DNA of 64,000 nucleotides from Thermodesulfobacteriota bacterium (GTDB lineage Bacteria; Desulfobacterota; Desulfobacteria; Desulfobacterales; UBA11574), in contig JBHPCZ010000003.1 in assembly GCA_042573625.1 (NCBI GenBank), forward strand, positions 3,154 to 67,153, given 5' to 3'. Numbering within the stretch: the stretch's first letter is position 1; every line of letters begins with the position of its first letter. The notes beneath the pieces were generated by a model that saw only the letters and a list, made by a program, of their open reading frames with translations, did not search any database and was not told the DNA's origin. The translations under genes were made by a program, and so were the position numbers. Of this stretch, positions 11,563 to 53,358 are shown piece by piece.

Positions 11563-12618
11563 TTATCTTTGTCTATAGGGCGGCACATCGTCGTAGTCAT
11601 TGATATGTCGCCGCTCATCCACAAAACGCCCCACTTCAAAATTGCTACTCTCTGGAAAGGCTTTTACTCTATCAAACAAGTTTAATAATTTTTGATACGT
11701 CTCAGCTGGATCAAGATGAGCAACGCGATGAACGAGTTGTTCTATTCGCCTGGCTTCTTCCCCCTGTGCCCATGTTTTTAACGCCACTTCCAGGGCAAAA
11801 TCATAATAGCCGGTCAAGAGTGCACAGGCAAACAGGACATAATTACTCCGATCTGAGAGGGGCTTCTGGCGAACATCATTAGCCAGGGGGTCTTTAAAAA
11901 AGACCGCATCAGCCCAGAAAACGCGTTCTCTCCCTGCCTCAACCATTTTATTTAAACGTTTACACGATCTATAATGCAAACCCTGAAAGCCATAAAAATA
12001 AAAACCACGTTCGCGTAGAAACATCTCAATTTCTGAAAAAAGCTTCTGATCCGAATAAAAAGGAACGAAATTTACTTCCACAAGAATAGCGACTGTGCGC
12101 CCCCATAATGTCTTTTCAGCGCCATTTAAGACCTCCCATTCAACACCCTGTGCATCCAGTTTAATAAATTCGCCACAGGTGTCCACCAGATCCTTCCGTT
12201 CAAATAACACCTTGTCAAGTGTTGTGGTTCGAATGGAAGTAGTCCCTTTTCTCTGGAGACTATTTATATTATAGCGCTGAACGATGGCCGGGTTTTCAGG
12301 TCTAAGTGAGTCAGTTACCGGGGCGGAAAAACGGTGCAGGGTACCCGGTCCTTCTTGGCCAGCCAGCGCCAAAGGGAGTATCTGGATCACTGAATACGGT
12401 GATTGGCGGTGGCAACTATTTCTTAAACGTGTGCATTCGGCCTCGTCAAGATCAAAGGCCAGCACTGCCGTATTTTCAGCCAGCGGTTCGACGAGAGGGT
12501 GAATGCCCCCACGAGCACCAATGTCTATAAAGCCGAGCGGATTGGCGCGCAACTCGGAACCTACTGCACTACCCATAAAAAGCGGTTCAGAGGTTAAACA
12601 ATTAATGCCTTTTAACAT
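11563..12618 (-). CDS. FkbM-family methyltransferase
   Basis: FIDIGARGGIH (SAM motif) and FIKLDAQGVEWEVLNGA are hallmarks of Methyltransf_21/FkbM proteins. Confidence 0.8.
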   Translation of the reverse strand: MLKGINCLTSEPLFMGSAVGSELRANPLGFIDIGARGGIHPLVEPLAENTAVLAFDLDEAECTRLRNSCHRQSPYSVIQILPLALAGQEGPGTLHRFSAPVTDSLRPENPAIVQRYNINSLQRKGTTSIRTTTLDKVLFERKDLVDTCGEFIKLDAQGVEWEVLNGAEKTLWGRTVAILVEVNFVPFYSDQKLFSEIEMFLRERGFYFYGFQGLHYRSCKRLNKMVEAGRERVFWADAVFFKDPLANDVRQKPLSDRSNYVLFACALLTGYYDFALEVALKTWAQGEEARRIEQLVHRVAHLDPAETYQKLLNLFDRVKAFPESSNFEVGRFVDERRHINDYDDVPPYRQR

Positions 12619-26455: not shown

Positions 26456-27361
26456 CTACTTTTTTTGGGGCCACGGATAATGCGGTCGGGTTTTCCATCT
26501 TTGATGCACCCAGAACCATTGCTCAGGATAACGACAGATAAAATCTTCTATTATTCTGTTATATTGTCGAGTAGTTTCTTCAACATCCTTTGTCAGGTCT
26601 CCGGTTTCTATCAAAGGGATTTCCGGTCCAAATTCCGCCATAAAGCCTCTTTGTTCACGAACTAAGAAAACCGGAACCACGGGTGTCCGTGTTCTCAAAG
26701 CCAAAAAAGCCATACCTTTATTGGTACAGGCCCGCTTACCAAAAAAATCGACAAAAACCCCTTCATACCAATCCACATTCTGATCCATCAACATGGTGAC
26801 CGCTTCACCTTTCTTTAAACGTCGTAGAATCGAAAGTGCCGCTCGGGTATTGGGAATCATTTTCATTCCAAATCGACTTCTGGTCTTTATAAAAAAATGA
26901 TCCAGCGGTGAAAAATCGAGCGGCCTGTAAAGTGTGCTGGCAGGATAACCGGTCAGGACCGGAAGAACCGGCAGCAGTTCCCAATTCCCCATATGGGCGG
27001 TAAGGCCCAGAACACCTTTGCCTTTCTCGAATGCAGCTTCAAGGTTGTGCAAACCTTGAATTCGAAAATGCTTGTGAAAATCTTTTGGTCTCAGTCTTAA
27101 AAACCATCCGATTTCAAACAAGATTTGTCCAAGATTTTTGAAAACCTTCCTGGCAAGCATTTTAATCTCATATGGATTTTTTTCATGACCAAAAGCCTGG
27201 GTTAAGTTATTCAGTGTAATCTGCCGGTGCTTCCCGGCAGCCAGAAACAGGACCTCTCCAATAAAATTGCCCAATCTAACAGCCCATGGTCGCGGTATAA
27301 GGCCTAATAGATTGAGCGATGTTTCAATGATTTTTAGTGCAATTTTTTCCAAGTGTGACAT
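26456..27361 (-). CDS. lipid A biosynthesis late acyltransferase (LpxL/HtrB family)
   Basis: TAHMGNWELL (HX4D/E acyltransferase motif), MLMDQN. ~300 aa with an N-terminal anchor. Confidence 0.8.
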   Translation of the reverse strand: MSHLEKIALKIIETSLNLLGLIPRPWAVRLGNFIGEVLFLAAGKHRQITLNNLTQAFGHEKNPYEIKMLARKVFKNLGQILFEIGWFLRLRPKDFHKHFRIQGLHNLEAAFEKGKGVLGLTAHMGNWELLPVLPVLTGYPASTLYRPLDFSPLDHFFIKTRSRFGMKMIPNTRAALSILRRLKKGEAVTMLMDQNVDWYEGVFVDFFGKRACTNKGMAFLALRTRTPVVPVFLVREQRGFMAEFGPEIPLIETGDLTKDVEETTRQYNRIIEDFICRYPEQWFWVHQRWKTRPHYPWPQKK

Positions 27362-27391
27362 GGCGTAGGCGGTTAAGATTTCATTAGAGGT

Positions 27392-27538
27392 GGTTTCAAA
27401 ACCTCAAAGTGGCGCCTTTTGACAATTTTGCGGAGCTCGCCCTGTGGAATTTCGCTTTGCGAACCCCTTCGGGGATTCCACAGGGCAGGCTTAGAACTTG
27501 TCAAAATTGTCAAACCAGCGAAAGGGAGGTTTTGAAAC
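27392..27538. repeat. palindromic intergenic element, copy 1 (MITE/REP-like or structured RNA)
   Basis: Outer arms ggtttcaaaacctc / gaggttttgaaac and inner arms ttttgacaattttg / caaaattgtcaaa are mutually complementary. The core ccctgtggaat...attccacaggg encloses two mini-hairpins (ttcgc-ttt-gcgaa and cccc-ttcg-gggg). The arms are near-identical to copy 2 at 51817-51983. Confidence 0.8.
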
Positions 27539-27606
27539 TGCTTCTATCAATAGAGACTTGTTCGTTTCAACCTACCCTATTTCAAGGTAAATATCTTATC
27601 ATTTAT

Positions 27607-36902: not shown

Positions 36903-38102
36903 TTACCCGGAAAAACGGGACAATACCCTTCGGACTAAATCCGCTAAAAAATCAACCTTCAACGGCCGGTCATCAGCTGTTCTGACAAGAAGGAATAATC
37001 CCAACCCGCCTATAACAAAATTTGGAACCCACATCCCGATTACCGGCGGATAGATACCTGCTTCACCAAAAACCCATCCTGCAGAAAGAAGCAGATAATA
37101 AATCAGAAAAAAAATGAGACCCAGACCCAAACCCCTTGATCGCTTTGTAGGTCCCGACTGAATCCCCAGAGGAATAGCCAGAAGTCCTAACGCAAAACAT
37201 GCAAAAGGGATTGAAAATTTCTTGTGAAATACTACCAGGGCGCCAAAGTAGTTTGCATCGGTTTTTTTTGCAGTCTTTAAATACTGGCTCAGCTCAGCAA
37301 GCGCCATTTCCTTTTCGTTTTTCGGAACTTTTTTCCCTCTTGCATAATTTTTTCCTCTTGCATAATTTAAGAGGCCGGTTGTAAGATCAAGGCTTACGTC
37401 ATAAGTGTCAAAACTGATCGAATTTACTGCCCTGCTCTCTTGATCAACTCGATTGATGGTTCCATTATACAATCGCAAGTGATAATCCAGCTTTTCGGGA
37501 TTTTTAAAGAGTTCACCTCTTGGCGCAACGATTGTGCTCACAATTTTTTTATTTCTTTGATCTTCAATAAAAACATCTATCAAATCCTTATTTTTCAAAT
37601 CGATTTTACTGATGTAAAGCATCACGTCCCTGAAGCTATCATTGAAAGTCCTTTCTTTCAGCCCGATGTTGAGATGGGATGCAGCGATTTTAATTGACAG
37701 GTTCTTAAACGATAGCCTTCCCCACGGTAATCCATATATGGCTATAAAACTCGTAAGCAGGCAGCCCACCAAGCAAAACGCCATTACCGGTGGCACTAAA
37801 CCATAAATGCTGACACCTCCGGTTTTAAAGGCCACGATTTCATTGTCGTTTGATAATCTGAGAAAAGTAAAAAGCACGGCCATCATTATCGATATGGGTA
37901 TTACAAATTCGAGGAAATGGGGCATGGAATAGAGAAGCATCAAGAGAACCGTTGTTAAGCTGATTCTGTAATTGACAATAAAGTTTGTAATATCAAGTAT
38001 CTTTGCCATCAGAAAAATAAATGTAAAAAAGATCAGGGTGACGACAAAAGGAGGGATCATCTCTCTAAAGATATACCTATTTACAATTGAGTTGAGTTTC
38101 AT
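36903..38102 (-). CDS. lptF: LPS export ABC transporter permease LptF
   Basis: N-terminus MKLNSIVNRYIFREMIPPFVV is typical of the YjgP/YjgQ family. First of the tandem pair. Contains an in-frame NYARGK-NYARGK duplication. Confidence 0.8.
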   Translation of the reverse strand: MKLNSIVNRYIFREMIPPFVVTLIFFTFIFLMAKILDITNFIVNYRISLTTVLLMLLYSMPHFLEFVIPISIMMAVLFTFLRLSNDNEIVAFKTGGVSIYGLVPPVMAFCLVGCLLTSFIAIYGLPWGRLSFKNLSIKIAASHLNIGLKERTFNDSFRDVMLYISKIDLKNKDLIDVFIEDQRNKKIVSTIVAPRGELFKNPEKLDYHLRLYNGTINRVDQESRAVNSISFDTYDVSLDLTTGLLNYARGKNYARGKKVPKNEKEMALAELSQYLKTAKKTDANYFGALVVFHKKFSIPFACFALGLLAIPLGIQSGPTKRSRGLGLGLIFFLIYYLLLSAGWVFGEAGIYPPVIGMWVPNFVIGGLGLFLLVRTADDRPLKVDFLADLVRRVLSRFSG

Positions 38103-51760: not shown

Positions 51761-51816
51761 AAATAATTTTGGTCTTAAGTCACATGTTGTCGTTTCCGGC
51801 AAAATTTCGTAGAACT

Positions 51817-51983
51817 GGTTTCAAAACCTCATAGTGAAGCCTTTTGACAATTTTGCGAAAAAGCTCTTGGCGAAGCGTAAAATTCGTTACTGTTTGAGGG
51901 CGATAGCCCGAGTTTTACGAATTTAGCGGAGTGAGCTTAGAACTTATCAAAATTATCAAACCAGCGAACGGGAGATTTTGAAA
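51817..51983. repeat. palindromic intergenic element, copy 2
   Basis: The left arm (ggtttcaaaacctcatagtgaagccttttgacaattttgcg) and right arm (gcttagaacttatcaaaattatcaaaccagcgaacgggagattttgaaac) are near-identical to copy 1. The core differs but is again self-complementary (cgtaaaattcg...cgagttttacg enclosing gggc-gata-gccc). Confidence 0.8.
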
Positions 51984-52056
51984 CAGCTTGTAACAAAATG
52001 CCACATATAAAAAATCAAACTGAACTTAGTAACCTATTTGCAGATAGCTGTCAAGA

Positions 52057-53358
52057 TCAAGCTGGCGAATCCATACGCTTTAACTTCAGAAAAAAAGTCG
52101 TGCCCTCGTCGACTTTGCTTTCAATATCAAGCCGATTGTCATACGGCTCAAGGATACTGTGAACGATCGAAAGGCCGAGACCGGTCCCGCTTTGCTTTGT
52201 TGTAAAAAAAGGATCGAAAATGGACTTGATCAACTCCCGGGACATGCCACAACCATCATCGGCAATCTCGATACAAACCTGTTTATTCTTTATAGGATAC
52301 ATTGAAATTTCGATAAATCCTGTGCCAGATATGGCTTCTGCAGCGTTCAAAAGAAGGTTCCACAAAACCTGTCGAAAATGAACCGAATCCATTTCAATCC
52401 AGATGTCGGAAGCAAAATTACTCTTTATTACCACCCTCCCTTTGCAAGTGATGTCGTTTTTAAAAAGCTCCACCGTATCCTTCAATGCTTTGTCCAGTCT
52501 TATTGCCTCAACGTTCGCAGCGGGTGGCTTTGCAAACAGAAGAAAATTGTTCACAAGGGCGCTTAGCCGGTCTGTTTCGCGCAGTACGATCTGCATAAGC
52601 TTGTCACGATCAGGGTTATATTGGAGGTCTTCCCTTAACAACTGTATTGATCCTGATAGGGAAGCCAGCGGATTTTTTATTTCATGGGCCATGCCTGCCG
52701 CCATCTCGCCCATATAAGCCATTTTCTCAACACGCTTTACATGATCCTCCAGAGCGGTGAGATCTTTCTTTGTCTTTTTCGCCTGTTCCGATAAAGTTCC
52801 ACTTAAGAAAGCAACGGCAAAACACGCCACCATGGTAATCATTATCTTGTAAAGCACATGGCTCCATGGATAATTAACAGCAGCAAGATTCCCCTCTAAA
52901 ACTAAAGGCTTTAGAAAACCATAATATTCAAGGTCAATCATGACGCCGTATTGTATGCTGCAAAGCACAGCCATGATGATGCTTCCCCTTTTGAAAAGGA
53001 GCATGCTCGAATAGATAATTACGACGAGATAGAGAAACGAAAAAATGCTTGAATAACTGCCCGTCACAAAAATGATCAGTGTGACGACAAAAGTGTCTAT
53101 ACCGGTCTGGACGTATGCAAAGAGATGCTCCTGCTTACCGCTTTGAAGAATCAAGGCATAGATGAATGAAAGTAGAAAAATGCCGCCAATTAATCCATAC
53201 AGAACCAATAGCGGTTTCGCTAGGGGGGAAGGGCTTTCACCGAGCTGTAGAATAATGGTTGATCCCAGCAACAGGGAGGAAAATAGGACCCGAAAGAACA
53301 TGAGCCATTTAAGCTTATGTTGTAAATCGCTTTCGGGCTTTATCAATGAACTCTTCAT
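52057..53358 (-). CDS. sensor histidine kinase, PilS-like (multi-TM N-terminus)
   Basis: About six N-terminal TM helices, H-box MAHEIKNPLASL, N-box LLLNAAEA, DDGCGM and GTGLGLSIV. Lies near pilC. Confidence 0.8.
   Translation of the reverse strand: MKSSLIKPESDLQHKLKWLMFFRVLFSSLLLGSTIILQLGESPSPLAKPLLVLYGLIGGIFLLSFIYALILQSGKQEHLFAYVQTGIDTFVVTLIIFVTGSYSSIFSFLYLVVIIYSSMLLFKRGSIIMAVLCSIQYGVMIDLEYYGFLKPLVLEGNLAAVNYPWSHVLYKIMITMVACFAVAFLSGTLSEQAKKTKKDLTALEDHVKRVEKMAYMGEMAAGMAHEIKNPLASLSGSIQLLREDLQYNPDRDKLMQIVLRETDRLSALVNNFLLFAKPPAANVEAIRLDKALKDTVELFKNDITCKGRVVIKSNFASDIWIEMDSVHFRQVLWNLLLNAAEAISGTGFIEISMYPIKNKQVCIEIADDGCGMSRELIKSIFDPFFTTKQSGTGLGLSIVHSILEPYDNRLDIESKVDEGTTFFLKLKRMDSPA

Follow-up and report, generated by a model that had tools for sequence, protein, structure and literature searches.

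Palindromic repeats in an uncultured Desulfobacterales genome are very probably MITEs bearing the ends of an IS5-family insertion sequence

Introduction

Two palindromic elements with nearly identical arms and different interiors lie within a 64,000-nucleotide stretch of Desulfobacterales DNA (contig JBHPCZ010000003.1, positions 3,154 to 67,153; the whole stretch is called the window below). What are they, and does the host keep them for a purpose of its own? A preliminary description, made from the letters of the window, offered three possibilities: that they are mobile repeats of the MITE or REP type, that they act as terminators or insulators, or that they form a family of structured leader RNAs. 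It proposed to choose among them by counting copies in the genome, by looking for compensatory changes, and by searching Rfam, and it held that the elements would be plain MITEs if their arms matched the ends of an insertion sequence (IS).

The evidence set out below makes it very probable that both elements are copies of a type II MITE (as defined in PMC10969869) of about 185 bp, which has the 21-bp ends of an IS5-family IS of the IS427-group type, is mobilised in trans, and duplicates TA on insertion.

Results

Limits and setting of the two copies

The shared arms are as first described. In the same orientation, 48 nt on the left are 90% identical between the two copies and 62 nt on the right are 89% identical, and the complementary pairs ggtttcaaaacctc/gaggttttgaaac and ttttgacaattttg/caaaattgtcaaa are present. 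The limits, at first placed at 27392-27538 and 51817-51983, were drawn too short: when all copies in the genome are aligned, conservation reaches outward to TAGAAG...CTTCTA, giving lengths of 162 bp for copy 1 and 183 bp for copy 2, with TA at each end (Table 1). Both copies do sit between the stop codon of one minus-strand gene and the start codon of the next, copy 1 between genes encoding an FkbM-type methyltransferase and a lipid A acyltransferase (LpxL family), copy 2 between genes encoding a histidine kinase and an FtsX/MacB-type permease, all on the minus strand. Because the limits extend further out, the left end of copy 1 is 23 nt from the lpxL-family ATG at 27361, not the 31 nt originally given.

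Neither copy contains a transposase gene, and the only coding content is a 71-aa chance ORF overlapping copy 1. The lengths of the two copies, like that of the canonical form (about 185 bp), are within the small size of MITEs (under about 200-800 bp), and all full copies have the terminal inverted repeats TAGAAsyGGTTTCAAAACCTC / GAGGTTTTGAAACwGCTTCTA. Elsewhere, the window contains a 26-nt direct repeat, AAAAAnGATCAGnGTGACGACAAAAG, whose two occurrences (38025-38050 and 53068-53093) are 92% identical.

Table 1. Positions of the two elements, their parts, and related features. Plain numbers are positions in the window; C numbers are contigs of the host genome, G000.
Feature	Position	Strand	Remarks
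Copy 1, rearranged MITE variant	27385..27546	+	TA included; body 27387-27544; ends align with family consensus and IS ends
Copy 1 left terminus, TA + GAGGTGGTTTCAAAACCTC, terminal inverted repeat	27385..27405	+	
Copy 1 right terminus, minus-strand reading TA + GAAGCAGTTTCAAAACCTC	27526..27546	-	18/21 positions identical to G055 IS end
Copy 1 hairpin insert, 52 nt, TCGCCCTGTGGAAT...ATTCCACAGGGCAG	27437..27488	+	In place of canonical core
Copy 2, MITE of canonical architecture	51810..51992	+	TA included; body 51812-51990
Copy 2 left terminus, TA + GAACTGGTTTCAAAACCTC	51810..51830	+	
Copy 2 right terminus, minus-strand reading TA + CAAGCTGTTTCAAAATCTC	51972..51992	-	
Conserved central core, CTGTTTGAGGGCGATAGCCCGAGTTTTACGAATTTAGC	51890..51927	+	Common to a second MITE family with different ends
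Family with same ends and other interior	G000:C54:1146-1301, C220:1893-2025, C36:7993-8148, C143:35576-35743, C158:14460-14640		
Nested insertion	G000:C34:2981-3250		Copy of studied family interrupted at TA by a MITE of about 150 bp of the TAGAACCTATCTCAAAAAC family
TTGATnnnCTCGTAAAAAGTC...GACTTTTTACGAG family	G000:C196:15661-15774, C109:1783-1911, C184:58506-58623, C54:3937-4059, C148:22408-22510, C77:9557-9642		
Sister IS, left end TAGAAGCTATCTCAAAAAAAAA followed by DUF4096 ORF	C64:1-300		Contig end
Sister IS, DDE C-terminus and right end	C28:1-205; C163, last ~205 nt		Contig ends
RAYT-like Y1 genes	G000:C217:16477-16800, C99:26403-26741, C99:5120-5455, C153:12900-13235, C153:18324-18647		~330 aa, DnaA-C-like tail

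A dispersed intergenic family

The host of the window is an uncultured Desulfobacterales MAG, a 3.63-Mb draft in 228 contigs with 46% G+C. BLAST and an nhmmer profile, together with a pattern search that tolerates mismatches, yield about 34 loci of the family in this genome, far above the two copies first seen. Twelve have the canonical form (about 185 bp) and share 82-90% identity with copy 2. The rearranged ones comprise copy 1, one on C170 (with an extra 52-nt hairpin), two with internal deletions (C193 and C206), and one interrupted by a MITE (C34). The other loci include about a dozen fragments and five members of a sister subfamily whose ends have diverged. All of the copies examined for position (27/27) are intergenic. 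TA closes the conserved sequence at 13 of 15 left and 14 of 15 right ends; the base just outside it varies, so the duplication is exactly 2 bp.

The preliminary description pictured differing cores, each folding on itself. Both copies do fold (copy 2 less well), and the ccctgtggaat/attccacaggg stem and the CUUCGG-closed hairpin that had been picked out in copy 1 both appear in the computed fold, but the two cores did not originate independently: copy 1 is a rearranged version of the canonical plan. In copy 2 the core has the form canonical for the family, of which about 95 nt are missing from copy 1, lost apparently by deletion between short direct repeats (ATTTWGCG). The 52-nt hairpin insert of copy 1 is found also in G000:C170:10044-10282, at 93% identity, and there the canonical core has been retained. 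What had been called a "variable structured core" thus arose secondarily, by rearrangement. One segment of the insert, ATTCCACAGGGCAGGC, is also part of a different short dispersed repeat. A small hairpin repeat containing ...CCCCAGAGGAATAGGCTTCGCATTCCACAGGGCAGGC... was encountered dispersed over about 12 places in the genome (e.g., C66:7709, C89:95, C161:11458, C174, and C149), and its 3' part is common to the insert.

A candidate parent insertion sequence

The 21-bp ends of the MITE (TAGAAG..TTTCAAAACCT) match both ends of an IS5-family element in a related genome, G055, which is the outcome that the preliminary description had equated with a plain MITE. This IS, of which one copy was found, at G055:C96 (L291:757-1697), came to light by searching the bacterial family with a transposase protein fragment. 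It is a complete element of 941 bp with TA + GAAGCCATTTCAAAACCTA at both ends in inverted orientation. Its ORFs encode DUF4096 (E = 1.6e-28) and then, in a different frame, DDE_Tnp_1/DDE_Tnp_1_2 (E = 1.3e-14); the copy has extra frameshifts, with more than one frame break. The IS end is identical at 20 of 21 positions to the left end of the MITE of the type found in genome G013 (for the right end of copy 1, see Table 1). MITE and IS are alike over about 21 bp; beyond that no similarity remains. Since only the ends are common to the MITE and an IS427-group-like IS, the MITE is of type II. In genome G021 (C42), an identical end adjoins the same transposase gene at the end of the contig.

Members of the IS427 group of the IS5 family are 832-865 bp long, are mostly flanked by 2-bp direct repeats, and have two overlapping ORFs (PMC3281130). 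The G055 element, with its length of 941 bp, its 21-bp ends, and its TA, falls within the bounds of that group (about 800-1000 bp, 2-bp repeats, ends of 13-21 bp). It is like the IS427-group ISs of Paracoccus (IS1248, ISPaes1, ISPpa6; PMC3281130) in its 21-bp ends, its 2-bp TA, and its DUF4096 and DDE_Tnp_1_2 ORFs, but it is somewhat longer than they are, comes from uncultured Desulfobacterales, and matches no named IS. The product of ORF A is about 52-56% identical to its nearest annotated relatives, whose genes are labelled "IS5 family transposase".

The host genome contains pieces of a sister IS, with termini TAGAAGCYATCTCAAAAAAA, at the ends of contigs C64, C28, and C163. The sequence common to C28 and C163 stops at ...GAGATGGCTTCTA (on the other strand, TAGAAGCCATCTC...), and the ends of this resident IS agree with those of the MITE at 15 of the first 17 bases. 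Probably the sister IS is multi-copy in this genome and breaks the assembly. A search of G000 and G013 for inverted ends at IS-like distances gave only MITEs, derivatives of these with deletions, and solo ends. An intact transposase gene with exactly the ends of the G000 subfamily is missing from the G000 assembly, and the search for a transposase source in G013 found only a decayed remnant; the active source in G013 is unassembled or lost. Genes of the IS4/IS5 type encoding 445-505 aa (DDE_Tnp_1) were considered as a parent and rejected; their ends differ.

Distribution and mobility

Of 24 genomes sampled from the same bacterial family, 14 contain matches to the element; other families of the order show only traces. 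A scan of 185,579 species genomes with an exact pattern returned 32 stretches in MAGs assigned to Desulfobacterales or to "delta proteobacterium", together with two apparent chance hits. One genus has a subfamily of its own, which shares about 75% identity with copy 2. Genome G013 has at least 9 copies that agree with one another at 96-100%, pointing to a recent burst. Another three copies of G013 sit inside a 1.8-kb block and may reflect segmental duplication or else strain or assembly redundancy of the MAG. The block occurs three times, at 98-99% identity (C4:30924-32724, C9:55176-56965, C35:46203-47628), and contains, besides a MITE copy, the terminal part of a patatin/Omp85-type gene and the beginning of an acyl-CoA ligase gene. 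In other Desulfobacterales MAGs, solo ends (nine or more) are all truncated copies beside ordinary genes.

Pairs of filled and empty sites, which belong to the sister subfamily in close relatives, show insertion at TA with a 2-bp duplication. The filled site G013:C20 reads GTGTT-TA-[GAAGCTG...GGCTTG]-TA-GAAATTT, and the orthologous empty site, G043:C271, reads GTGTT-TA-GAAATTT, with flanks 94-96% identical to those of the filled site. Because the target there reads TAGAA, this pair alone would be compatible with a duplication of 2-5 bp. A second empty site, G008:C180, has exactly 2 nt where G013:C12 is filled, and this, together with the variable bases outside TA, fixes the size at 2 bp. An empty site for copy 1 was sought at 80 metagenome loci with lpxL homologues, none of which was syntenic or had an FkbM-type gene upstream (the best protein was 67% identical).

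Neither the arms nor the core were found on the viral contigs searched. A degenerate pattern of the ends gave 18 matches on viral contigs, nearly all of them chance occurrences inside phage genes, and one MITE-like end. On contig L252 (IMGVR_UViG_3300036987_000306), positions 12399-12449 form an end, TAGAAGTCATTTCAAAACCTCGTATCAGG..., that resembles the family with the same ends and another interior (Table 1) and runs up to the point where the stored stretch stops.

Related families

A second family in the host genome has the same 21-bp ends and an unrelated interior, the latter resembling the interior of a TAGAACCTATCTC family. Identical ends with different interiors are to be expected if one transposase serves several MITEs. 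A third family, with ends TAGAACCTATCTCAAAAAC, has one copy inserted into a copy of the main family. There is also a palindromic MITE-like family of about 200 bp with ends TTGATnnnCTCGTAAAAAGTC...GACTTTTTACGAG. Its central core, about 58 nt long (…AAAATTTCAAACTGTTTGAGGGCGTTAGCCCGAGTTTTTGAAATTT…), recurs in the studied family, as do portions of its inner arms. It exceeds 40 copies per genome in one related genus and has many copies in G008, G013, G018, G022, and G031. To judge from these sequences, ends and interiors appear to have been mixed between MITE families.

Hairpin structure and selection

As RNA, copy 1 folds into a single, nearly perfect hairpin of 160 nt (-83.3 kcal/mol, z = -9.4, with 0 of 200 shuffles as good), and copy 2 folds more weakly (-47.8 kcal/mol, z = -2.2). 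When 30 copies from 8 genomes are aligned to a hairpin of five helices, 91.7% of the cells form a standard pair, as against 28-57% in controls with the 3' partners slid. The compensatory changes that the preliminary description had proposed to look for are present: 16 pairs are changed on both sides, and there are 92 double-change cells, compared with 36 +/- 4 in shuffles, none of which (0/500) reached as high a number. The double changes mostly separate the two main subfamilies; the inner stem adjoining the core shows compensated variation within G000 too. The long hairpin is thus one that has been kept by compensatory changes while the subfamilies diverged.

Once inserted, copies decay almost neutrally. 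Deviation from the consensus amounts to 6.8% where columns are paired and to 9.3-9.6% where they are not. Among the private stem mismatches of the G000 copies, G-T (9) and A-C (9) are equally frequent, and this equality argues that no strand-specific RNA constraint acts on inserted copies (the G013-type master has four fixed G-T pairs, too few for an argument). Since residents decay nearly neutrally, the constraint must fall on the copies that go on spreading and not on the resident ones. Template switching inside the palindrome could be an alternative means of restoring the symmetry. From genus to genus, the central core (about 58 nt) hardly varies, and the stems flanking it vary solely through compensated pairs. 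Perhaps hairpin and asymmetric core together form a selected module, serving transposition (by binding a host factor or through a hairpin intermediate) or serving as a host RNA-processing signal where the element is co-transcribed, although we consider this unlikely.

Discussion

How would such an element move? According to the explanation preferred here, that of a MITE with IS5-family ends, a transposase encoded by the IS and supplied in trans would recognise both ends of the MITE and move it. Insertion would take place at a TA dinucleotide, which would be duplicated in the process, and only intergenic insertions would survive. A copy that is co-transcribed would give rise to RNA with a long duplex. 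The mobilising enzyme is presumably the transposase of the matching IS, and the resemblance of the ends suggests that the resident sister IS may be able to move the MITE as well. The old copies in the window (82-90% identical to other copies) presumably inserted in the same way. Since the ends match an IS5-type IS, the elements are selfish DNA of an ordinary kind.

Could some other enzyme be responsible? REPIN- and TIRtron-type repeats are moved in the form of single-stranded hairpins by a RAYT-like Y1 (HUH) tyrosine transposase, and in such a case a TA on one side would be the target rather than a duplication. It speaks for a mover of this kind that the whole element is one long hairpin with compensatory changes, that solo left arms are common in G013-type genomes, and that G000 has five RAYT-like genes of about 330 aa. 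However, the 33 Y1 loci sampled across 27 genomes from the bacterial family, like the five in G000, have no arm of the element within 1.5-2.5 kb. The Y1 genes carry unrelated inverted repeats of their own, of the GGGGTCA... type (the class described in PMC3733652), and the ends of the MITE match a DDE-type IS instead. Movement by a Y1 transposase is therefore scarcely credible, and of the original suggestion of a MITE or REP-type repeat, the MITE survives (by its many copies, inverted repeats, TA duplication, burst, and IS ends) while the link to RAYT does not. The classic TA-duplicating family is IS630/Tc1-mariner. A transposase of that type has been proposed as the mover of the pneumococcal MITE RUP, and with TA as the target duplication here, RUP and IS630-Spn1 offer a precedent (PMC2229807). 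Nonetheless, the DDE_3 domain is absent from G000 and from the element-rich genomes G008, G018, and G022, the few DDE_3 genes of G004 and G013 lack TAGAAG..TTTCAAAACC ends, and it is on ISs of the IS5/IS427 type that matching ends are found. We give an IS630-type mover almost no credence.

One might also suppose that the host keeps the element as a structured RNA or DNA signal with a function, for instance as a promoter, as the leader of the operon that follows, or to terminate or insulate transcription. Both window copies lie just upstream of a start codon, inside tandem minus-strand pairs; the folds are strong; TTGACA boxes occur in both arms; and there is a skew of about 2:1 in orientation within tandem pairs (12 to 4 in G000, 12 to 6 elsewhere), albeit a weak one that includes orthologous duplicates and derives from crude ORF calls. 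A terminator or insulator, as once suggested, finds no support in the makeup of the copies: on neither strand does either copy have an intrinsic terminator, with its G+C-rich stem and the T run behind it, and the sigma-70 promoter consensus is absent from both. The proposal of a structured leader RNA likewise finds no support. Rfam 15 gives no match at gathering thresholds, and the sole match at permissive thresholds is a chance one, to an unrelated lncRNA model. Copies adjoin unrelated genes, in both orientations, whether the gene pair is tandem, convergent, or divergent. Among the 80 metagenome loci with lpxL homologues, not one has the element directly upstream (a partial match to the core lies about 900 nt away in one case). 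The balance of private G-T and A-C mismatches in G000 also weighs against a host-kept signal, which on the whole is highly improbable.

The MITE resembles several known repeats. It is like the Correia elements (CREE/NEMIS) of Neisseria in that these are about 100-200 bp long, flanked by TA, intergenic, and multi-copy, have variants with internal deletions, and form a long hairpin when transcribed (PMC2229807, PMC10969869). It is unlike them in that it inhabits a different phylum, shows no outward promoter consensus, and has had a candidate parent IS found for it here. An IHF-like site in the core of the MITE is only a partial match to WATCAANNNNTTR, judged by eye, and the sister family does not conserve it. 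There may be a loose resemblance between the Correia end TATAGTGGATTAACAAAAACC and the MITE end TAGAAGTGGTTTCAAAACC. The hallmark of a Correia element is a specific 26-bp inverted repeat in a Neisseria host. The element of this study, from a Desulfobacterales host, is not a Correia element, though by analogy it would work in a similar manner. RUP of Streptococcus pneumoniae (with IS630-Spn1; PMC2229807) is also a MITE whose ends match an IS, one resident in its case, and which inserts at TA; here, in contrast, the parent is of the IS5/IS427 type and not IS630. REPIN/REP-RAYT and TIRtron repeats are similarly dispersed, intergenic, hairpin-forming palindromes, but the present family has no association with Y1 genes and no GTAG or GGGGWSAS tag, and it duplicates TA at insertion.

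The family is apparently an undescribed one, restricted to an uncultured Desulfobacterales lineage, with an identifiable parent of the IS5/IS427 type. The palindromes at some 34 loci here, and the hundreds in related Desulfobacterales MAGs, can be annotated as MITE copies and do not have to be pursued as riboswitches, terminators, or operators. The parent IS, found at contig ends, contributes to breaks in assembly. The recent burst in one relative provides natural presence/absence markers that could be of use in population studies. The family offers a clean case of compensatory stems in a selfish element and of ends and interiors mixed between MITE families; the general understanding of how MITEs work is unchanged.

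A separate observation concerns the five Y1 genes of the host genome. Each is bracketed by GGGGTCA... inverted repeats, hence constituting a TIRtron, and solo copies of the repeat occur elsewhere in the genome.
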